Assembly: GCA_030653695.1 (NCBI GenBank) | Contig: JAURYY010000080.1 | Coordinates: 1 to 47,571, forward strand | Direction: 5' to 3' | Source: Paludibacter sp. | GTDB lineage: Bacteria; Bacteroidota; Bacteroidia; Bacteroidales; Paludibacteraceae | DNA: 47,571 nt | In this document: positions 3,191-47,321 of the stretch, in pieces | How positions within the stretch are numbered: position 1 is the first letter of the stretch | How the letters are laid out: each line of letters opens with the position of its first letter | Notes under the pieces: generated by a model | Told to the model about the DNA's origin: nothing | Seen by the model: the letters and a program-made list of their open reading frames with translations, nothing else | The model's database searches: none | Made by a program: the position numbers and the translations under genes

Positions 3191-3235
3191 AATGTGCTAA
3201 CTTGCTAATGTGTCTCAATAGCTATCGGGAGTGCT
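3191..3235. repeat. Degenerate AATGTGCT octamer array containing a palindrome copy (TCTCAATAGCTATCGGGA, 3213-3230)
   Basis: Read directly in the waaA-hisS junction. Confidence 0.8.
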
Positions 3236-9912: not shown

Positions 9913-10024
9913 TCTTGTCTTGATTCTTGACTCTTGTCCCGATAGACTTCGCCGATAGCTATCGGCGTGAGCTCAGTCGAACGCTCAGTCGAACGCTATC
10001 GGGATGGCTCTTGGCTCTAATATC
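9913..10024. repeat. Composite nested palindromic repeat in a TTGACTC-like heptamer array
   Basis: TCCCGATA-GACTTCG-CCGATAGCTATCGG-CGTGA-(GCTCAGTCGAAC)x2-GCTATCGGGA at 9937-10004. An inverted homologue lies at 45912-46003. Confidence 0.9.
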
Positions 10025-12082: not shown

Positions 12083-12120
12083 GTGTTTATTTAATTTAAA
12101 AGAACAAAAAACCACGAACC

Positions 12121-12153
12121 GTCCCGATAGCTATCGGCGAAGTCTCACGGGAT
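12121..12153. repeat. Partial composite palindromic repeat
   Basis: GTCCCGATAGCTATCGGCGAAGTCTCACGGGAT shares CCGATAGCTATCGGCGAAGTC with the composite at 45959-45979. Confidence 0.85.
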
Positions 12154-20067: not shown

Positions 20068-20139
20068 TCCCGATTCCCGATTCCCGATTCCCGATAGCTA
20101 TCGGGAATCGGGAATCGGGAATCGGGAATCGGGACGGGA
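20068..20139. repeat. Concentric palindrome (TCCCGAT)4-AGCT-(ATCGGGA)5-CGGGA
   Basis: Read directly; 20068-20127 is a perfect 60-bp palindrome. Confidence 0.97.
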
Positions 20140-24074: not shown

Positions 24075-24110
24075 AACAATCCCGATAGCTATCGGAAAAA
24101 GAACAAAAAC
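24073..24110. repeat. Palindrome copy (TCCCGATAGCTATCGGA, 24080-24096) in an AGAACAA heptamer context
   Basis: Read directly in the xseA-folB junction. Confidence 0.9.
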
Positions 24111-29186: not shown

Positions 29187-29224
29187 GAGGTAAGAATCCA
29201 GATAGCTATCGGGAGAGGTAAGAA
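29187..29224. repeat. Palindrome copy (TCCAGATAGCTATCGGGA, 29197-29214) flanked by 10-bp direct repeats GAGGTAAGAA
   Basis: Read directly. Confidence 0.9.
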
Positions 29225-36177: not shown

Positions 36178-38009
36178 TAGTGAAAATGAAACGCTATTCA
36201 TTTTTGGTGTATCACCGGCAATACACTGAATTTCTTGAAAAACTCAGGGAAACAGGAGTGTTACACGTGATTGAGAAACCTGAAGGAATTGCTGAAAACG
36301 ATGCTTTGCGTGACAAAATGCAGTTAGCAGCCAGGGTAAAAACAGCAATTAAACATATTGAAAAGTTGATTCCAAAAGGAGTGATTCCAAAAACGGAAAA
36401 TACTTCTGATAATGGTTTGGAATTGCTGATTAATATTGAAAATAAATTTGCAGCTAAAGAATTATTGGAACAAAAGCTGCAGCTTGCCGAACGTGACCGC
36501 GATCGCATGGAAGTTTGGGGCAGATTCAGTCTCGAAAGGTTACAAAATTTAAAAGATGCTGGTTTTGTGTTGACCTTTTTTAGTTGTAATCTTCGAAAGT
36601 TCGATCAGGAATGGGAAGTACTTTATAATGCGTTTGAGATTGATACTGTTGGAACTACCCGTTATTTTATTACTATAACTCAACTTGGCGAAGCTGTTGA
36701 CATAGATGCAGATCCTGTGAAACTTTCATCTAAAACAGCCGAACAACTTGACATTGAAATTATTTCATTGCGAGAAACTATAGAAAAAGAAAAATCAGAT
36801 TTGATCAATTTGGCTGTCGACAACAAATTTGGTTTGAAAGACTTTCAGGCTAAGGTGATGAGCGAAATTGATTTTTCGAATGTAATATTGAACACTCAAG
36901 CTGAAGCCGATGAAAAAGTGATGTTGCTCGAAGGCTGGTGTCCCGAAGAATCTGAAACTCTATTGAACGGATATCTCGAAGCATCGGGTATTTACTACGA
37001 AACTGCCCAGCCTACCGAAGGTGATAAGGTGCCTGTTAAGCTTAAAAATAATGCTTTTGCCAAATTATACGAAATGATCGGCGAATTGTATGATATGCCC
37101 AATTATCACGAAATTGATTTAACTCCTTTCTTTGCACCTTTTTATATGCTCTTTTTCGGGTTATGTCTGGGAGATGCAGGATATGGTTTTATTTTGGTGT
37201 TAATAGCAATTTTTGCACGCAGAAAAGTAAAACCCGCGTTGAAACCAATTTTATCTTTAGTGGCATGGTTGGGTGGTGCCACTGTAATTCTGGGAACGGT
37301 AAGTGGAACCTTTTTTGGTTATAACCTTTTAGAGTCTGAAATATCCTGGCTCGAAACAATAAAAGTTTTTATGCTTAATTCCGATCAATTATTTTACACG
37401 GCATTAATTATTGGTGTAGTACAAATAATGTTTGGCATGATACTCAAAGCTGTAGGTAAAGTTCGCCGTTTTGGTTTTGCGAACTCTCTTTCAACCTGGG
37501 GCTGGATAATAGTTTTATTAGGATGCGGAGGAGCTTATGCGCTTTCAAATTTTGCGGGACTTCAGCCCGAAATTGCGAAATGGACTTATATGGTTACAGG
37601 AGGAATTGGCGGACTTTTAATATTTGTTTTAAATAATATTAAACGTAATCCATTAATAAATATAGGAGCTGGTTTGTGGGATACTTACAATATGGCAACG
37701 GGATTATTGGGTGATGTTTTATCATATATCCGATTGTTTGCATTAGGAATTTCAGGAGCTGTTATGGGTTTTGTATTTAATGATCTGGCAATTCAACTAA
37801 GTGGTGATATACCGGTTTTAAGTCCGCTGATAATGATTTTAATTATGCTCTTAGGACACAGCATCAATATATTTATGTCAGGATTAAGTGCATTTGTGCA
37901 TCCCATGCGTTTAACATTTGTCGAATTTTATAAAAACTCAGGATTTGAAGGAGGTGGGAAAAAATACAAACCATTTTCGAAATATAAAGAAAAAGAGTCT
38001 CTGTTTTAA
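36174..38009 (+). CDS. ntpI: V/A-type ATPase subunit I (a)
   Basis: Motifs P.Y.E.D.TP, FFG.CLGDAGYG, DVLSYIRLFALG and HPMRLTFVEF. Confidence 0.96.
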   Translation: MIVKMKRYSFLVYHRQYTEFLEKLRETGVLHVIEKPEGIAENDALRDKMQLAARVKTAIKHIEKLIPKGVIPKTENTSDNGLELLINIENKFAAKELLEQKLQLAERDRDRMEVWGRFSLERLQNLKDAGFVLTFFSCNLRKFDQEWEVLYNAFEIDTVGTTRYFITITQLGEAVDIDADPVKLSSKTAEQLDIEIISLRETIEKEKSDLINLAVDNKFGLKDFQAKVMSEIDFSNVILNTQAEADEKVMLLEGWCPEESETLLNGYLEASGIYYETAQPTEGDKVPVKLKNNAFAKLYEMIGELYDMPNYHEIDLTPFFAPFYMLFFGLCLGDAGYGFILVLIAIFARRKVKPALKPILSLVAWLGGATVILGTVSGTFFGYNLLESEISWLETIKVFMLNSDQLFYTALIIGVVQIMFGMILKAVGKVRRFGFANSLSTWGWIIVLLGCGGAYALSNFAGLQPEIAKWTYMVTGGIGGLLIFVLNNIKRNPLINIGAGLWDTYNMATGLLGDVLSYIRLFALGISGAVMGFVFNDLAIQLSGDIPVLSPLIMILIMLLGHSINIFMSGLSAFVHPMRLTFVEFYKNSGFEGGGKKYKPFSKYKEKESLF

Positions 38010-38624: not shown

Positions 38625-39491
38625 ATGAAGAAAAAAACCGCAAATTTAAAATCAATATTCCAAAAATTGCGTTTTCAATACCGCGTTTCGGTGTTGAACG
38701 AGAATACGCTCGAAGAATCGTGGTACATAAGGCTATCACGATTAAATGTCATTTTTTTTACTTCTGCGTTGGGTTTATTTACTTTTATTGTCATTACGGT
38801 TCTTATTTTTACAACTCCTATCCGCTATTATTTACCTGGCTACGGCGATTCAGGAAACAGGGGAAGTATTATTCACGAGTCGATGAAAACCGACTCGTTG
38901 TTTTCACAAATTGAATTACAATCGGGTTATCTTGATGTTATTAAAGGTGTGATATCCGGTAATTTAAAAGCCGATTCAATTCATAAACTCGATTCGGTAT
39001 CACTGAAGCAACAAGCAGAATTAATGCTCGAAAAATCGAAAGCCGAAAAAGAATTTATAAAAAAATACGAAAGCGAAGAAAAATATAACTTATCAACTAT
39101 TGCCGCTAAACCGAATGAAAACATGTATGTTTTTTTTCGACCCACAAAAGGTGTTATTTCTTCTATGTTTAATATGACCGAAAAGCAGTTTGGGATTTAT
39201 ATGATAACTTCGCCCAACGAAACTGTGGTGAGTGTTCTTTCAGGAACCGTAGTTTATACTGCTTTTACTTTTGATTATGGCTGGGTTATTCAGGTACAGC
39301 ACGAAAATAATTTTATTTCGATATACAGAAATAACACAAGGTTGCTCAAAAAAACCGGCGACAATGTAAAAGCCGGTGAAGGAATTGCTATTACCGGTGA
39401 GGGTGCCGATAATAAAACAGGCGTTCAGTTTTATTTTGAACTTTGGCAGCAAGGTAAACCGGTTAATCCGGAGGATGTAATAATTTTTTAG
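38625..39491 (+). CDS. M23/LytM-domain membrane-anchored protein, apparently lacking zinc ligands
   Basis: N-terminal TM and the M23 pattern (SV.SGTV, G.VI.VQH.N...S.Y, K.GD.VK.GE.I...G, FELW..G.PVNP), upstream of dxr. TACTTTTG at 38591-38598. Confidence 0.85.
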   Translation: MKKKTANLKSIFQKLRFQYRVSVLNENTLEESWYIRLSRLNVIFFTSALGLFTFIVITVLIFTTPIRYYLPGYGDSGNRGSIIHESMKTDSLFSQIELQSGYLDVIKGVISGNLKADSIHKLDSVSLKQQAELMLEKSKAEKEFIKKYESEEKYNLSTIAAKPNENMYVFFRPTKGVISSMFNMTEKQFGIYMITSPNETVVSVLSGTVVYTAFTFDYGWVIQVQHENNFISIYRNNTRLLKKTGDNVKAGEGIAITGEGADNKTGVQFYFELWQQGKPVNPEDVIIF

Positions 39492-39587
39492 AGAACAGCC
39501 TCCAGCCCCTAAAGGGGATAAAAAAGTTAATTTGTTGATTTTGAGTTCAAATTTCTAACTTTATATTTCTTATTTCTAACTTAGTTA

Positions 39588-40745
39588 ATGTCTGAAAATA
39601 AAAAACAAATAGCAATTCTGGGTTCTACCGGTTCTATCGGAACGCAGGCATTAGCAGTTATAGCCAACAATAATTCGTTGTTTGAAGTGTACGCATTGAC
39701 AGCTAATAATCAAGTGGATATGCTGATTGAACAAGCGCGTAAGTTTCAGCCCGAAATGGTTGCCATAGCCAATGAATCGCATTATCTCAAACTTAAAGAA
39801 GCATTGTCCGATTTACCAATTAAAGTTTTTGCCGGAAGCGATTCAATAGCCCAAATTGCTGAAATGCAACCCATTGACATTATCCTTGCTGCCATGGTAG
39901 GTTATTCGGGATTAAAGCCAACCATCAATGCTATTAAAGCCGGAAAGAAAATTGCATTAGCCAACAAAGAAACATTGGTTGTTGCCGGTGAATTGATTTG
40001 TGATTTGGTGCTGAAACACAATTCGGTAATTATACCCGTTGATTCCGAACATTCAGCTATTTTTCAATGTTTGACCGGCGAAGGAAATAATCCTGTTGAA
40101 AAGCTGATTCTTACCGCTTCGGGAGGTCCGTTTCGAACAAAATCGATGCACGAACTGGAACATGTAACCAGTGCTCAGGCACTAAGGCATCCTAATTGGG
40201 ATATGGGCGCAAAAATTACTGTCGATTCGGCGAGTATGATGAATAAAGGTTTCGAAATCATTGAAGCCAAATGGCTTTTTGGCGTTTCGCCCGAACAAAT
40301 TGATGTGGTAGTTCATCCCCAATCTATTATTCATTCGATGGTTCAGTTTACCGATGGATCGATAAAAGCCCAACTCGGACTGCCGGATATGAAATTACCA
40401 ATTCAATATGCTTTTACTTATCCCGACCGAATTAAAACTAATTTTCCCCGTCTCGATTTTAATATTTGCGCTCAGTTCACTTTCGAACAACCCGATATGG
40501 AACGATTCCGAAATCTGGCTTTTGCTTATTATGCCATGGAAAAGGGAGGGAACATGCCTTGTATTCTGAATGCAGCGAATGAAATTGTGGTTGCGGAATT
40601 TCTGAAAGATAAAATAGGGTTTCTTCAAATGAGCGATATCATCGAAAAAGTATTAGCCAAAGCAGAATATATTGCCCATCCTGCTTATGAAGATTATGTA
40701 AAAACAGACACACTCGTTCGCAAACTTACAAAGGAGTTTATTTAA
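39588..40745 (+). CDS. dxr: 1-deoxy-D-xylulose-5-phosphate reductoisomerase
   Basis: Motifs LGSTGSIG, LANKE, PVDSEH, LTASGGPF, HPNW.MG.KIT.DS and NAANE. Confidence 0.98.
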   Translation: MSENKKQIAILGSTGSIGTQALAVIANNNSLFEVYALTANNQVDMLIEQARKFQPEMVAIANESHYLKLKEALSDLPIKVFAGSDSIAQIAEMQPIDIILAAMVGYSGLKPTINAIKAGKKIALANKETLVVAGELICDLVLKHNSVIIPVDSEHSAIFQCLTGEGNNPVEKLILTASGGPFRTKSMHELEHVTSAQALRHPNWDMGAKITVDSASMMNKGFEIIEAKWLFGVSPEQIDVVVHPQSIIHSMVQFTDGSIKAQLGLPDMKLPIQYAFTYPDRIKTNFPRLDFNICAQFTFEQPDMERFRNLAFAYYAMEKGGNMPCILNAANEIVVAEFLKDKIGFLQMSDIIEKVLAKAEYIAHPAYEDYVKTDTLVRKLTKEFI

Positions 40746-41019
40746 CTCAGAAAGAATATTTTTTTTCAGATAAAAGGGAATATATGACTAATTGACAGTG
40801 TCAGCATACAACAATCAAAAAATAACTATATTAATTACGCTTTTAGCAACAGTTGCAATACAAATGATAGTGCTAAACATAAACGCACGATATTTGTAGT
40901 ATTCGTATCTCCCCCAAAAGCATTTCTTTAGTTGATATGCTATGTCGGGATTTAGGTTTTGAAACGACATTATTCACAATTACTCTGAAAAAGATATAAT
41001 TCAGAGCAAATAAAAATTT

Positions 41020-42507
41020 ATGGAAACTTTTTTAATCAGAGCATTACAGTTAATTCTCAGTTTATCGATTTTGGTGTTTTTACACGAATTCGGTCATTTT
41101 TTCTTTTCAAGGCTTTTCAAAGTACGTGTTGATAAGTTTTATATGTTTTTCAATCCGAATTTTTCGCTGATACGGGCAAAAAAAATCAACGGGAAATGGC
41201 AGATTAGATATTTTGCAAAGAACGTGCCGGCAAATGAACGCCCCAAACACGATGCCAACGGAGATATTTTGCACGACTCGAAAGGCAAAACAGTGTATGA
41301 ACCCATCCCCTTAAATGAATTATCGGATGACGATTGGCGCAAATATCCCGAAACTACAGAGTGGGGTATCGGTTGGTTACCATTGGGCGGATATTGCAAA
41401 ATTGCCGGAATGATTGATGAATCGATGGATAAAACACTTATGGCTCAGGTACCTCAAACCTGGGAATATCGATCACGACCTGTATGGCAACGACTCCCGA
41501 TTATTATCGGTGGTGTGTTGGTCAATTTCATTTTGGCACTGGTCATTTATTCGGCAGTTCTCTTTACTTGGGGAAAGGAATATCTACCTTTTGAAAATGC
41601 CAAATATGGACTTAATTTCTCTCAAACATTTTTAGAAAATGGATTTAAAAACGGGGATAATATTATTGCAATTGATGGACAAACTGTTGAACAACGCTCA
41701 GATGTTATTGAAAGCATTTTAATTGACGGGAAACAAAATGTTACCCTGTGGCGCGATGGACAGAAAGTGGAAATACAACTTCCGTCGGATATTGCTCAGA
41801 AAGTATTAGCGAGTGAAGAATTAAATTTAGTTTCAGTACGTTACCCTTTCGTTATCGAAGAGGTCTCAGCCGGAAGTCCGGCTGCGGATGCTAAACTTCA
41901 GCAAGGTGACAGCATTGTTGGCATTAATGGGAAACATTTGTTCATATTTCAGGATATAGCTGCGGAGTTAGATGCCTCGAAAAACGCTAAAATCGAAATT
42001 TCGTATTTTCGTAACGGTCAGTTAATGCAATCTGAATTGCAGGTAACTGAAAACGGGAAACTTGGTGTGGGATTAAAATCACCATACCAGTTTTTTCAGA
42101 CTAAAAAAATCGAATATGGATTTTTTGAATCAATTCCTGCGGGCATAAGTCTCGGATGGGAAACACTTTCGAGTTATGTGAAACAATTTAAACTTGTGTT
42201 TTCAAAAGAAGGCGCTAAACAGCTGGGTGGTTTTGGGGCTATTGGAAAAATGTTTCCAAAATTTTGGGATTGGCAAATTTTTTGGTCCATGACGGCATTA
42301 CTTTCTATTATTCTTGCATTTATGAACTTTTTACCCATACCGGCTTTGGATGGCGGTTATGTGTTATTCCTGCTTTACGAAATGTTTACCGGACGAAAAC
42401 CTACCGATAAGTTTTTAGAGTATGCTCAAACAACCGGAATGCTACTTTTAATGGCACTTCTGATTTTTGCCAACGGCAATGATATTTTTAGGGCAATTTT
42501 TAAATAG
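41020..42507 (+). CDS. rseP: RIP metalloprotease RseP (M50) with PDZ domains
   Basis: Motifs HEFGH, PLGGY and NFLPIPALDGG. Confidence 0.96.
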   Translation: METFLIRALQLILSLSILVFLHEFGHFFFSRLFKVRVDKFYMFFNPNFSLIRAKKINGKWQIRYFAKNVPANERPKHDANGDILHDSKGKTVYEPIPLNELSDDDWRKYPETTEWGIGWLPLGGYCKIAGMIDESMDKTLMAQVPQTWEYRSRPVWQRLPIIIGGVLVNFILALVIYSAVLFTWGKEYLPFENAKYGLNFSQTFLENGFKNGDNIIAIDGQTVEQRSDVIESILIDGKQNVTLWRDGQKVEIQLPSDIAQKVLASEELNLVSVRYPFVIEEVSAGSPAADAKLQQGDSIVGINGKHLFIFQDIAAELDASKNAKIEISYFRNGQLMQSELQVTENGKLGVGLKSPYQFFQTKKIEYGFFESIPAGISLGWETLSSYVKQFKLVFSKEGAKQLGGFGAIGKMFPKFWDWQIFWSMTALLSIILAFMNFLPIPALDGGYVLFLLYEMFTGRKPTDKFLEYAQTTGMLLLMALLIFANGNDIFRAIFK

Positions 42508-42605
42508 TTGATTGGTTGATTGGTTAATTGGTTAATTCGTTAATTCGTTGATTGGTTAAATCGTTGATTGGTTTCCCGATAGCTATCGGGAGGTTAATTG
42601 GTTAA
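42508..42605. repeat. Tandem octamer array (TTRATTSG) interrupted by a perfect TCCCGATAGCTATCGGGA (42574-42591)
   Basis: Eight units at 42508-42571, then TT-[18-mer]-GG, then TTAATTGG TTAA. Confidence 0.95.
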
Positions 42606-42661
42606 CAGAAATCAAATGAAAAACTTAACTGATTTACCCATTAAAAAAAGCAATTATTAAT

Positions 42662-43021
42662 ATGAAACCTACAATTCTTTGTTACACTAAATGCGGAACT
42701 TGCCAGAAAGCCGAAAAATGGTTAAAAGCGAACAAAATTGTATATACTTATCGTCCAATAAAAGAAGAAAATCCAACGAAAGAAGAACTGACAGTTTGGA
42801 TTAAGAAGAGTGGTTTGCTTGTTAGTAAGTTTTTCAATACCAGTGGATTGCTTTATAAAGAAAAAAATATGAAGGATAAAGTGAAAACTTTGTCCGAAAA
42901 TGAATTGATTAATATTTTGGCATCAAACGGATTGATGGTAAAACGTCCGATATTGTGGTTTGGCGACAAAGTGCTGGTGGGTTTTAAAGAAGAAGAGTGG
43001 GAAGACTTATTTTCAAAATAA
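42662..43021 (+). CDS. ArsC/Spx/YffB-family thioredoxin-fold protein
   Basis: Motifs CGTCQKA..WL, FFNTSG..Y, VKRPIL and VGFKEEEW. Confidence 0.9.
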   Translation: MKPTILCYTKCGTCQKAEKWLKANKIVYTYRPIKEENPTKEELTVWIKKSGLLVSKFFNTSGLLYKEKNMKDKVKTLSENELINILASNGLMVKRPILWFGDKVLVGFKEEEWEDLFSK

Positions 43022-43052
43022 AGTTCGTAACAATACTTTTCAAAATAAAATA

Positions 43053-43083
43053 TGAGGCTGCCTGAATAAATCTGACAGCCTCA
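43053..43083. terminator. Hairpin between convergent genes
   Basis: TGAGGCTG...CAGCCTCA. Confidence 0.6.
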
Positions 43084-43107
43084 GTTGTTTATTTTGGACA
43101 TAAAAAA

Positions 43108-43752
43108 TCAAAATATAAGTTCTCCGAAATACTCGGGACAATGAAAATCAGGATTTTTTGTGTTAATAGCATTCCACGAAAGATAATGAGGTTTTGAACT
43201 TCCGTCGGCACATTTGTAGAAGTTGGCTGCGAGTTTATCTGGAAAGTTATTTATGTCAATACCCAAAACAGTAAACGGAATTTTAACCGTGAGTTGCCAC
43301 TCTGATTTCCCTTCTTTTTCAGTAAAAGTTTTGCGTCCTAACGAAGCATAGCGGTCGATTTTATTCATTTCTTCTGCTGTGAAAGGTGTAATATTTTCAT
43401 TGCGACTTATGCGTGAAGTTGCTAAGCAGGTACCTATGCAGTTGAATTCGAAATTCATGTACGCCTTTCTTTCGGCTAATTTGCAGAAGAATTCAACACA
43501 ACTGTCCTGCCACACCGGGTCGTGATCGTTTGCAAATTGAGCCCGAATATTTTCTTCTGTAACTTCAAAATAAATGAAAATTGCGTCATTCGAACGGGCT
43601 ATTTGAAAACCGCAGTCAGGTTTAACACCATACTGCTCAAGCCAGTTCACGGCATCAACTTTTTCGGGGTTTAAAATATTTAATATTCCGACAGCCATTT
43701 CTGCCGTTGCATTATCAAGAGCAGATAAATAATTGATTTTTAATGATTTCAT
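43108..43752 (-). CDS. Carbohydrate-binding family 9-like (DOMON-like) protein
   Basis: Motifs VWQDSCVEFF, Y.NFEFNC.G, ANFYKC.D and PDFH.PE.FG. Confidence 0.85.
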   Translation of the reverse strand: MKSLKINYLSALDNATAEMAVGILNILNPEKVDAVNWLEQYGVKPDCGFQIARSNDAIFIYFEVTEENIRAQFANDHDPVWQDSCVEFFCKLAERKAYMNFEFNCIGTCLATSRISRNENITPFTAEEMNKIDRYASLGRKTFTEKEGKSEWQLTVKIPFTVLGIDINNFPDKLAANFYKCADGSSKPHYLSWNAINTKNPDFHCPEYFGELIF

Positions 43753-43868
43753 TTTTTAGACTAAAGACAAAAACAAGAATGTGCTAATGTGTCCGTTCGA
43801 TAATGAGATAATTGACAATTATAATTGAACGCAAAACATAACACTTGAAATGTTAAACCCCAAACAAA

Positions 43869-45857
43869 TTAATTCCCCGGTTTATACTCCACAAATGCTT
43901 CGATAGCTTCGTAAGATGCCAACCCAAGTTTATTATACAGGTCGGCGGTGGCTTTATTTCGTTCTTCGGCACGCTGCCAGAACAGTCGTTCGTCGCCACC
44001 CATAAACGGAGCACTTTCCATTTGTGATTGATGTTTCAGAATTGAATTGCGTTTGCTGCGCAGTTGTTCGGGACTCATTGGTACAGCCATTTCAATGTGG
44101 TCTATTTCCCATTCAGCCCATGCACCTCTGTACATCCAGATTCGGCAATCCTTCATCCATTGTTCGTTTTTTAGTTCAGCAATAGCGGCTAAGGCAGCAT
44201 TCAGACAAACTTTATGTGTTCCGTGCGGGTCGGCAAGGTCGCCCGCAACAAATATCTGATGCGGTTCAATTTTAGTAAGCAATTCGATGGTTTTATGTAC
44301 ATCAATTTCAGTAAGTTTACCTTTTTGCACTTTACCGGTTTCGTAAAATGGTAAATCGAGAAAATGAATATTTTCAGGTTTTGCACCTACAAACCGGCAA
44401 GCTCCCCGTGCCTCTTCCCTGCGTATTTGCCCTTTAATATAAAGTATTTCACTTGAATCAGTATCGCCTGTACTTTTCTTGTTTTTTAAAAAATCCAGAG
44501 ATGAATCGAATATTGAAATTAAATTTTTGGAATCAGAGTCGTAGTTATTAATTAAATTTTTAACCACTGATATCGACCGAATTACTTCATCGTCACCAAC
44601 AGCAATATTGCCAGATGTCTGATAAACTACATGTACTTCATGTTTCTGATCAACCAAACGCTGGAATGTTCCACCCATCGATATTACATCATCATCAGGG
44701 TGGGGGCTGAAAATCACCACACGTTTCGGAAATGGTTTGGCTCTTTCGGGACGATGCGTATCATCTGCATCGGGTTTGCCCCCCGGCCAACCGGTAATGG
44801 TGTGCTGAAGGTCGTTAAAAATACGGATATTTACATCGTAAGCCGAACCGTAGAGCGAAAGAAGTTCATCAAGTCCATGTTGATTGTAGTCTTTATTGGT
44901 TAGTTTCAGAATAGGTTTATTGGTTTGCGTACATAACCACACAATGGCACGGCGAATCATTTTATCAGTCCAGTCGCACGGACCAACTAACCAAGGGTAA
45001 CTTAGACGGGTAAGCATTTGAGCAGCATCAAGGTCGAGTACTGCTTTGGCATTTTTGTGTATTTGTAATATTGATGCAGGAACGTTGTCGTCCACTTTTC
45101 CTTCAATTACTTCTTTTAAAATAGTAGCTTTGTATTCGCCCCAAGCCGACAGAATTACTTTCTTTGCATTAATAATCGTTGAAAGACCAATAGTGATGGC
45201 ACTTGCAGGAACTTCAGACATTGAATTGTAAAATTGCTTCAAATCACGCCTTGAAACATGGTCGAGCAACATTAAACGGGTAATTGAACTGACTTGAGAG
45301 CCGGGTTCATTGTATGCAATATTGCCTATCAAACCTATACTTACCAACACTAAATCGAGATTTCCGAAATTTTCAATTTGCTGTTCATATTTCCGGCAGA
45401 ATTCATAAATATTCGATCGGTCAATATTAAAATCGGGGGTGTAAAAATTTGCCGGATTGAAATCTACTTTGTTCAGCAAATGCTCCCGAAGTAGTCTTGA
45501 GTTTGAATGCTGTAGGGGGTTCGAAAGCGGGAAAAATTCGGTAACATTAAATACGATTACATTTGAAAAACTCAAGCCTTCTTTTTTGTGTAATCTTACA
45601 AGTTCAGCATAAACATCGAGGGGTGAAGAGCCGCCCGAAAGCCCGAGTACACAATTTTCGCCGGCATTTTTTTTGCTTATAATCAGTTCTGCTATTTCGC
45701 AGGCTATAACCCGAGCACCTTCTTTTTCATTATTATAAATCTCGGTACGGAGTTTTTCGTAACGTGTTTGACGCAGGTTCTCGAACGCATCCGAAGGTCG
45801 GTAATAACGTTCAGGAATACGCTCGAAAGTTATTTTTGAACTTAAATTGAAATTCAT
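43869..45857 (-). CDS. Glucosamine-6-phosphate deaminase-like domain fused to a PIG-L/LmbE deacetylase domain
   Basis: NagB-fold N-terminus (LSFSNV..FN, NEPGS, P.SILQ.H) and C-terminal FSPHPDDD and DPHGTH. Confidence 0.88.
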   Translation of the reverse strand: MNFNLSSKITFERIPERYYRPSDAFENLRQTRYEKLRTEIYNNEKEGARVIACEIAELIISKKNAGENCVLGLSGGSSPLDVYAELVRLHKKEGLSFSNVIVFNVTEFFPLSNPLQHSNSRLLREHLLNKVDFNPANFYTPDFNIDRSNIYEFCRKYEQQIENFGNLDLVLVSIGLIGNIAYNEPGSQVSSITRLMLLDHVSRRDLKQFYNSMSEVPASAITIGLSTIINAKKVILSAWGEYKATILKEVIEGKVDDNVPASILQIHKNAKAVLDLDAAQMLTRLSYPWLVGPCDWTDKMIRRAIVWLCTQTNKPILKLTNKDYNQHGLDELLSLYGSAYDVNIRIFNDLQHTITGWPGGKPDADDTHRPERAKPFPKRVVIFSPHPDDDVISMGGTFQRLVDQKHEVHVVYQTSGNIAVGDDEVIRSISVVKNLINNYDSDSKNLISIFDSSLDFLKNKKSTGDTDSSEILYIKGQIRREEARGACRFVGAKPENIHFLDLPFYETGKVQKGKLTEIDVHKTIELLTKIEPHQIFVAGDLADPHGTHKVCLNAALAAIAELKNEQWMKDCRIWMYRGAWAEWEIDHIEMAVPMSPEQLRSKRNSILKHQSQMESAPFMGGDERLFWQRAEERNKATADLYNKLGLASYEAIEAFVEYKPGN

Positions 45858-45911
45858 TATTTATTTTTTAAATAAGGTTAATTTATTTTCAGGGCAAGTT
45901 GTATAATGAAA

Positions 45912-46003
45912 GATATTAGAACCAAAAACAATCCCGATAGCGTTCGACTGATCTCACTCCGATAGCTATCGGCGAAGTCCATCGGGACAAGAGCCAAGAA
46001 CAA
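45912..46003. repeat. Composite nested palindromic repeat, inverted homologue of 9913-10024
   Basis: TCCCGATAGC-GTTCGACTGATCTCACT-CCGATAGCTATCGG-CGAAGTC-CATCGGGA (45932-45987) with CAAGAGC-type heptamer flanks. Confidence 0.9.
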
Positions 46004-46086
46004 TCCCGATTCCCGTCCCGATTTATCGCGAAAACCCAAACCCGAAACCCGAAACCCGAAACCCAGCATATTCTGATTTATCGGGA
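46004..46086. repeat. Cluster of TT-core palindrome variants and an AAACCCG heptamer array
   Basis: TCCCGAT-TCCCG-TCCCGATTTATCGCGA (46004-46031), (AAACCCG)3 at 46038-46058, and TTCTGATTTATCGGGA (46071-46086). Confidence 0.85.
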
Positions 46087-46580
46087 AAACGCGAAACAAT
46101 GATTGTATTAAATCATTTGATGTTGAATTTCATGCAAAAATAAAGAATTATTTTCAAATTATTCAATCTGAAAGGTACAATTTTTTTTGTAGGAATAATT
46201 CAAGAATAAGAATTGGACGCTTTATTAACCCATTAGCACAACTTGCTGATTAATAATTCCTTTTATTTCACCCACATTGTAAACAATTAAAACAGTAGGA
46301 TCGAAGGTGAAATTGAGTAATGAGCAAAAGTTAAACACAAGATGGAGTATAAAGTTCGTCAGGATTTGCTTGTTTGGAAAGTAGATAATCCTAATGGTGT
46401 GATGAACGCTATCGGCGAAGTATAGTCAATCAATTACCGATAAGTAAGATGTTGTAAAAAGAAATCTCTGAAAAAAGCCGGTATCAACTAACTTAGAAAA
46501 ATTAATTTTCAGCCGTTTGTGCCCGACTCTGTTCAGGAATTCTTTTTTATTTCAAGAAAATATAAACTGCGAATAGGAAA

Positions 46581-47027
46581 CTAAACTTTTTTAACTGAAA
46601 CGGCATTTAGTCCTTTGCGCCCTTGTTCAAGTTCAAAAGTAACCATGTCGCCCTCTTTCACGTCCTGCAATAATCCTTTGAAGTGAACAAAATATTTTTC
46701 CTGCGTTCCGGTTTCTTTGATAAAACCAAAACCCTTCGAGTCATCGTAGAAGTCAACGCGTCCGTTTCTGATGGACGGAAGTACTTCATCTTCTCTTCTC
46801 GAAACGCCGATTTCAATAGTTGAAGCATCAACAATTCTTTTTTTGGAGGGATCGGGAGGGGTGTTGCTAATATTGCCGTTTTCGTCAACATAAGCTATCA
46901 TGTTGTCGAAGCCGCCATTTGAAGGGTTCAGTTTCCTGTCCTCCATTTTTTTCTGTTTATCTTTTCGTTTTTTTAAAAGTTTTTTTTCTTTTTCCTGCTT
47001 AATAAATGAGTTTTGGGATTTAGCCAT
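46581..47027 (-). CDS. Cold-shock domain protein with a basic N-terminal extension
   Basis: RNP motifs KGFGFI and YFVH, plus GD.V.FE...G.KG.NA, and the Bacteroidota-type N-terminus with MIAYVDENG. Confidence 0.9.
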   Translation of the reverse strand: MAKSQNSFIKQEKEKKLLKKRKDKQKKMEDRKLNPSNGGFDNMIAYVDENGNISNTPPDPSKKRIVDASTIEIGVSRREDEVLPSIRNGRVDFYDDSKGFGFIKETGTQEKYFVHFKGLLQDVKEGDMVTFELEQGRKGLNAVSVKKV

Positions 47028-47321
47028 TGAACTGAAAGTTTTTTTTAATGATGTAAAAATATTTTGAAGTAATTACTTGTGAAATTAGAACATTTTTTCT
47101 CTGAAAGTTATTGATTGGTACATTTCAACCCAAATAAATGGAGTCGTTTTAACTTTATAGCGATGGTAATGTCATAATTACGCTGTAAAGATACAATAAA
47201 AAATGATATATTTTTATTGCACATTCGTAGTCATTTAAAAAACGGATTATAGGCTGTTTTATTTAACATTTAATGTCTATCGGCTTTTGCAGCCAATGAA
47301 ATAAATTTAACTCAAATATTT

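Follow-up and report, generated by a model that had tools for sequence, protein, structure and literature searches.

A tandem array of octamers that begins directly after the stop codon of rseP in a Paludibacter genome is interrupted by an 18-bp perfect palindrome, which raises the question of what the insertion did to the host bases at this point and by what route so short an element could have arrived. The window, that is, the whole stretch of 47,571 nucleotides that was analysed, is contig C128 of assembly G000 (3.69 Mb, 36% GC, 383 contigs, 98% complete). On its forward strand, the left part of the array (42508–42573) consists of eight octamers at positions 42508–42571 and TT at 42572–42573; the palindrome TCCCGATAGCTATCGGGA, hereafter element A, occupies positions 42574–42591 by sequence match, with no strand assigned to this or any other copy; and the right part (42592–42605, forward strand) consists of GG, one further unit, TTAATTGG, and a final TTAA. 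This sequence had been quoted exactly in the first-pass annotation. The TRF scores for the array (42508–42605) are 78–92, and the computed fold of element A as single-stranded DNA is a 7-bp stem with a 4-nt loop. The neighbouring genes, both on the forward strand, are bystanders: rseP upstream (41020–42507; TIGR00054 above cut-off) and an Spx/MgsR (ArsC-related) gene downstream (42662–43021; TIGR01617 above cut-off). T9SS domains were also found by domain search and, like the distribution of the repeat, indicate Bacteroidota.

The first-pass annotation had proposed that four bases of one octamer were replaced here without target duplication. The array permits two readings that lie one period apart: TT[18]GG implies four bases lost and a net gain of 14, and GGTT[18]GGTT implies four bases duplicated and a gain of 22. 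Because +14 and +22 are equal modulo 8, no proof of the footprint can come from this array by itself, and a footprint taken from tandem register alone was rejected as ambiguous modulo the period. The same ambiguity affects the similar readings that had been offered for 3213, 9937 and 24080 and, at 20068, for the outer junction. The second reading corresponds to a MITE-like insertion with a 2–4-bp target duplication, replacement being an artefact of the tandem register. It can draw on the GGTT that flanks element A on both sides at 42574, the sole 4-nt junction repeat among 77 simple sites, and on an excess of 2-nt junction repeats (23 of the 77 sites vs. 7.4 in shuffled pairs). Junction repeats of 7–10 nt occur at three of the 77. 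Since these sites lie in repeat arrays, the 2-nt and the 7–10-nt repeats can all be read either way.

Orthologous loci do not fix the register at 42574. The rseP–arsC spacer of the relative G003 has the octamer array and lacks element A, and its number of units differs, so the register cannot be taken from it; relatives are about 70% identical at this locus, and only G003 retains the octamer array. In the orthologs examined (L002–L020), the spacer holds the octamer array (G003), heptamer arrays, hairpin pairs, or merely 2–10 bases, and its short tandem arrays appear to be lineage-specific and may possibly be mobile themselves. The 42574 junction was found in none of five element-rich relatives, and no empty allele of it was seen in the orthologs or in Logan contigs from one sequencing run, probably that of the source sample. 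A Logan contig from this groundwater run matches positions 39246–47319 with no differences and no gaps. Eight clustered bases within 37631–37670 differ between the public contig and the window, and in the public contig data the depth rises about 15-fold from 47320 onward, as if the contig ended in a multi-copy element.

To establish the footprint, the G000 genome was searched for empty homologs, i.e., other places with both flanks of filled sites, and 19 non-tandem sites, picked from these searches and from tRNA loci of other genomes, were re-tested. All tandem-array sites were left out before counting, as were the C233/C257 pair (4 or −1) and site C339, where 6 nt found at first were not reproduced on re-test. 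A credible empty allele was available for 18 of the 19 curated sites, of which 12 lie in G000 and 6 belong to tRNA copies of other genomes; for the 19th, an empty match was sought, no credible one was found, and the site was dropped. The loss at these 18 sites amounts to three bases in four cases, four in seven and five in seven, and no site shows a duplication or a clean +18; for two of the sites, the match of the flanks includes 7 mismatches over 32 positions. The first lost base is A on one strand at 17 of the 18. Among the examples, an IS-like end lost AGAA, as judged from eight empty copies, and a RAYT-like gene and a tyrosine-integrase gene lost 5 nt each, with a frameshift. Footprints in other genomes and in viral contigs span 3–6 nt.

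Element A thus replaces 3–6 target bases and duplicates none. The earlier claim that no target duplication accompanies insertion holds as a general rule, the predicted net gain of +13/+14 is seen at 14 of the 18 sites, and comparison with empty alleles, run at these other sites, did not refute the replacement reading. The replacement as such is real; its size varies between 3 and 6 nt and is not a fixed 4. For 42574 itself, we infer the loss of four bases from the genome-wide rule, the array being equally readable as a 4-bp duplication. Replacement of hairpin loops was considered as a general rule and rejected: stems of at least 6 bp are present at 0 of 47 own sites, 5 of 125 sites in other genomes and 3 of 39 viral sites.

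Self-nested copies give the same answer. In the innermost layer (n = 49), 7+5 bases of the outer copy are kept in 37 cases, 7+7 in 11 and 5+5 in one, and AGCTAT or AGCT (6 or 4 nt) was lost in 48 of the 49. A duplication reading of self-nesting needs a stand-alone empty 12-mer, of which there are no copies; together with the absence of duplication at the 18 unambiguous sites, this refutes the MITE-like reading as a general rule, and we regard it as extremely improbable. Among two-layer self-nested copies in G000, 13 alternate 7/5 then 5/7, and 7,7/5,5 occurs in none; copying of whole composites could account for the alternation.

Copies of element A are far more numerous than chance allows. 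The window contains eight matches with up to three mismatches, against 0.01 expected. A self-nested copy at 20068–20139 has left arms of 7, 7 and 7, a core, and right arms of 7, 7, 7, 7 and 5. Two composites involve a second element, B: at 9937–10004 element B opens element A at its centre and a CGCC variant of A lies within B, and at 45932–45987 an A[B[A']] composite sits inside a heptamer array, followed at 46004–46031 by a decayed nested copy. Copies with one mismatch lie at 1768–1785, inside a heptamer array at 24080–24097, and at 29197–29214, where a 10-nt direct repeat flanks the element in a repeat-like context and the footprint is ambiguous. A copy with two mismatches is found at 3213–3230, a decayed composite at 12112–12152 (approximate edges; core 12122–12139), and a degenerate copy with three mismatches at 1081–1098, close to where an IS110-like gene fragment ends (725–1102; below the family cut-off).

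The G000 genome as a whole has 103 exact 18-mer copies and 155 copies of the 14-nt core. In the genus, 34 of 61 genomes contain this core; at the level of the order, 36 of 201 contain the 16-nt core. The exact 18-mer occurs in 52 viral stretches and at least 127 genome stretches; the 80 genome matches listed with titles are all Bacteroidota by name. Cultured isolates and one complete Flavobacterium chromosome are among them, and for this reason an assembly artefact was ruled out. In viral contigs L032/L066 and L031/L035, putative open reading frames (149 and 167 aa) enclose the 18-mer. G000 has further abundant families of short palindromes: GGGGCATGCCCC (42 copies), CCCCTTTAGGGG/CCCCTAAAGGGG (53/52) and TTCCGATAAATCGGAA (14). 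Seven G000 copies on contigs C135, C300, C357 and C49 start with AAAATCACTGATAG or AAAATCGCTGATAG and differ in their right flanks, which suggests that their junctions may have formed via micro-homology within the left arm.

Element B, the 25-nt CGTTCGACTGAGCTCACGCCGAAGT, is found at 9946–9995 and 45941–45978 in the window (approximate edges) and genome-wide. It goes into the 18-mer, and into other copies of B, at their AG/CT centre and with no net loss of bases; it was also found inserted in a CCCCTAACCCCTAAAGGGG-type repeat. This clean footprint, unlike that of the 18-mer, may reflect another enzyme.

The behaviour of element B resembles strand exchange and speaks for single-strand transposition of a REP-like hairpin by an HUH enzyme (RAYT/IS200-like), as do seven Y1_Tnp matches in G000. 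These matches are non-discriminating, since 32 of 36 genomes have them, whether element-rich or element-free. The hairpins beside the Y1 genes are of other kinds, and element A has inserted into Y1 genes themselves. An HUH enzyme should leave the target bases in place on strand transfer, which counts against this origin of element A, and we consider it very unlikely. Element A does share with REP/REPIN–RAYT systems a non-autonomous palindromic repeat served by a trans-acting enzyme, and nested mosaics (PMC3116915, PMC3733652); it differs from them in the absence of a terminal GTAG or CGTC tag and in its replace-type footprint, and it neither flanks nor co-occurs with Y1 transposases. From MITEs and DDE transposition it is set apart by the absence of target-site duplication at the 18 unambiguous sites.

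If bases are replaced, the next question is what places the element where it is found. We compared 26,464 site pairs whose distal flanks are unrelated. At least 15 of the 18 junction-adjacent bases match in register in 227 pairs, compared with 0–6 pairs at shifts of 1–6 and 28 at a shift of one heptamer period. A neighbour at 14/18 exists for 141 of 234 sites vs. 1.1% of 1000 random intergenic positions. The 73 of 234 sites that have no such neighbour include 42574 (best match 12/18), and for these the donors were lost or are missing from the assembly, or little homology is enough for some new sites to arise.

A match of flanks alone could be explained by target preference; the linkage of variants to flanks could not. 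Of 169 pairs with high similarity, 21 have the same non-plain variant at both sites, against 57 of 23,987 pairs with low similarity. A private variant with eight copies is flanked by GTAA/TAAA in seven of them, and another is confined to the integrase site (6/6). Within repeat families, element copies hold a constant register, and private variants track 9-nt flanks at unrelated loci. Among the integrase paralogs, 8 of 13 are filled, and the same 43-nt variant is present in sequences that are mostly 66–82% identical around the site. A clade of filled integrase paralogs was rejected (AU p = 0.00012; p = 0.0003 in a second tree without the two long rows C238 and C54). Paralog-specific bases persist next to the element, so conversion tracts must be very short. 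From these sequence patterns, we consider it likely that element A spreads by flank-guided copying, or homing, between look-alike sites, the direction (filling rather than emptying) being the one that we infer.

Two other routes have to be weighed against the same data. An enzyme could insert the element de novo, without pairing of flanks, by a staggered or double cut of loose preference, the hairpin being captured or synthesised and shared flanks reflecting target preference only. Orphan sites such as 42574 exist, target sites have only a weak purine-strand motif in common, A is the first lost base, and hairpin or tRNA loops make up a minority of sites, all of which suits such an insertion. 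Target preference, however, cannot tie private variants to particular flanks, and it leaves the same 43-nt variant in paralogs just 66–82% identical unexplained; we find this route improbable. A reverse transcriptase could also write the element by target-primed synthesis on both strands. Target-site deletions are known for some retroelements, and two annealed extensions could yield a perfect palindrome. Against this, G000 (98% complete) has no RVT_1 match and the flank-linked variants are unexplained, which makes such an origin hardly plausible.

No multi-copy small gene family is enriched beside element A in G000. A candidate enzyme lies in a tRNA-lodged cassette. On contig C287 of G000, a gene for a GIY-YIG protein of about 95 aa (PF01541 match) follows tRNA-Met and ends within a tRNA fragment that is cut off by a palindrome remnant, the truncated downstream palindrome. 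In relatives, the unit consists of a tRNA, the nuclease gene and a tRNA fragment whose D-, anticodon or T-loop bears the palindrome, and the cassette occurs at tRNA-Met, -Leu and -Phe. A four-contig genome (G229, locus L201, C1:1915500–1917800) contains a tandem array of six nuclease copies with a 404-bp period, the last one truncated; in this array, the tRNA fragment provides the stop codon of the complete copies. At another locus (L202, G199:C16), one tRNA-Leu fragment has palindromes in its D, anticodon and T loops.

The nuclease alignment has invariant Y5, Y16, G18, R27, H31 and E66, so that these single-domain proteins of about 95 aa have the catalytic residues Tyr/Arg/His/Glu of GIY-YIG nucleases; the single copy of G000 has Ser instead of the otherwise invariant Arg. 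The structure model of the nuclease has a pLDDT of 92.7. Its best Foldseek matches are the branched-DNA nucleases HIGLE and Slx1, at E values of 0.015–0.06, which are below significance; nothing was found at E ≤ 0.001, and a PDB sequence search returned nothing significant.

The nuclease and the element occur together. Order-wide, 12 of 13 genomes with a profile match at E < 1e-20 have the exact 16-mer. When G000 and two training genomes are left out, the 16-mer is present in 9 of 10 nuclease-positive genomes vs. 24 of 188 others (Fisher p = 3e-7), a value that is overstated because kin are not independent, and the co-occurrence is partly built in because the cassette itself carries copies of the element. 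Five of those nine genomes have a variant palindrome in the cassette itself, and the 16-mer copies counted there therefore lie outside the cassette. Within the genus, the nuclease is found in 8 of 60 genomes and the element in all 8, three of which belonged to the training alignment. In a set picked by element count, 13 of 18 element-rich genomes (two weakly) and none of 18 element-free genomes have a nuclease match; counts of all GIY-YIG proteins gave no discrimination before the subfamily was isolated. A profile scan of metagenomes gave three loci, which were left out of the counts.

Palindrome type also follows the nuclease tree. Among 30 loci examined, the nucleases that adjoin A-type palindromes (n = 12) make up one side of a 99/98 branch, and 13 relatives stand beside other palindromes, many of them TCCCGA..TCGGGA in place of the anticodon arm; this grouping is partly circular because the loci were ranked by a profile of A-type proteins. 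In a sister GIY-YIG subfamily (L227–L242; tRNA-Val, -Asn and others), TCCCGA..TCGGGA palindromes replace the entire anticodon arm, which suggests that the element may have begun as an anticodon-arm mimic. On the evidence of these genomic associations, the GIY-YIG protein of the cassette is probably the cognate enzyme of the palindrome.

Ordinary recombination, or oligo-like annealing at replication forks, could nevertheless spread the palindrome by host-only gene conversion, the cassette being merely an often-transferred carrier and target. The whole of the homing evidence is enzyme-neutral, and element-rich genomes without the nuclease exist. The element without a nuclease match is seen in 25 of 52 gene-negative genomes of the genus, and the element-rich among the gene-negative genomes are G241 (51 copies), G257 (48) and G260 (30), each in more than 500 contigs; G091 (39 copies, 100% complete) has weak partial nuclease matches only. 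G000 has the most element copies, yet its sole nuclease gene lacks the Arg. In element-rich genomes that lack an intact copy, the gene may have been lost, unassembled or dispensable. Host-only conversion does not explain the narrow 3–6-nt footprint with A as the first lost base, the tracking of the nuclease branch by palindrome type, or the near-constant presence of exact copies outside the cassette in nuclease-positive genomes, and we consider it unlikely.

The combined reading, which joins replacement without duplication and copying between similar flanks to a probable tRNA-lodged GIY-YIG partner that would cut the target, seems to us an even call. The suggestion of cut-and-templated repair in the first-pass annotation would fit flank-guided copying and the candidate nuclease. 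In the course of events that we propose, a filled donor would pair with an empty target via about 9 nt of flank on each side, and the donor hairpin would be extruded at a three-way junction, facing 3–6 unpaired target bases. The cognate enzyme, taken to be the ~95-aa GIY-YIG protein of the cassette of tRNA, nuclease and palindrome-bearing tRNA fragment, would bind the hairpin and cut the unpaired target loop, and repair synthesis would copy the hairpin, so that the palindrome, plus anything nested in it, would be copied in register. The 3–6-nt loop that can be cut would set the footprint and tilt conversion to the filled allele; entry to new target families would be rare, by chance micro-homology. 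The geometry of the three-way junction is speculative and is put forward tentatively.

A precedent for the proposed cut is SsnA, a 94-aa GIY-YIG nuclease described as binding a hairpin in single-stranded DNA only, cutting a few nucleotides upstream, and also cutting when the stem is formed in trans by two strands (PMC11893778). The Ssn family (SsnA with its NTS/SRM hairpins) resembles the present system in having a single-domain GIY-YIG protein of about 95 aa beside a short palindromic repeat that is dispersed in many copies (PMC11893778). It differs in that element A is a perfect, non-directional palindrome and in that the gene here lies in tRNA cassettes, Ssn genes lying between two SRMs. 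The SRM consensus had no match in the 18-mer or around the G000 nuclease gene, and the SRM pattern check did not support the C273 gene as SRM-flanked. Chenal et al. 2025 (PMC11893778) does not use the words 'tRNA' and 'Bacteroid', and its sections 8 and 10 give no route of repeat spread and no footprint.

The nuclease sets the system beside the GIY-YIG homing enzymes as well, and the repeat sets it beside the SDRs of cyanobacteria. T4 SegB is a free-standing GIY-YIG homing endonuclease; such genes are linked to tRNA genes and spread by cutting and templated repair. As in homing systems, the filled allele here would be copied non-reciprocally into empty homologous sites, given the inferred direction. 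Unlike SegB, the nuclease here is the catalytic domain only, and the homing unit would be an 18-bp non-coding palindrome with very short tracts and many unrelated target families; unlike homing endonuclease genes in general, element A encodes no nuclease for a long specific double-stranded site, and its targets share only a weak motif. SDRs are reportedly mobile repeats of 21–27 nt that stand in heptamer arrays and nest in themselves, with no enzyme identified. Element A resembles them as so described, being shorter than 30 nt, dispersed, present in short tandem arrays and nested in itself; its sequence and phylum differ. One SDR, SDR5, is stated to have inserted precisely into HIP1, in a passage citing Elhai et al. 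2008. By analogy, element A would act like an SDR-type very small mobile repeat and an Ssn-type pair of hairpin and nuclease. A full-text literature search with thin coverage of subscription journals, judged by listings and abstract openings, yielded no description of the element, its footprint or the cassette.

The way in which repeats of less than 30 bp move within bacterial genomes becomes directly testable through the measured footprint, the genomic indications that short flanks guide copying, and a candidate enzyme that has intact homologs in cultured relatives among the Bacteroidota. The footprint differs from those of DDE and HUH transposition, and the likely way in which element A moves would be undescribed for selfish DNA. 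Phylum-wide, element A disrupts integrase and RAYT-like paralogs and tRNA copies.

Taken together, these results would be compatible with a new class of mobile DNA, hairpin-guided micro-homing, which we offer as a possibility that is still open to considerable doubt: the palindrome would be the binding site of the nuclease, the flanks a programmable guide, and 3–6 unpaired target bases would be overwritten, the autonomous form being the tRNA-lodged cassette with its anticodon-arm-mimic palindrome. If the three-way-junction model is true, Ssn-type hairpin nucleases would be tied to selfish spread, and the model would offer a very small programmable editing tool. Many bacteria have very small nested palindromes, for which micro-homing, if true, would provide a mechanism; it would also yield a DNA-guided short-patch editor of about 95 aa.
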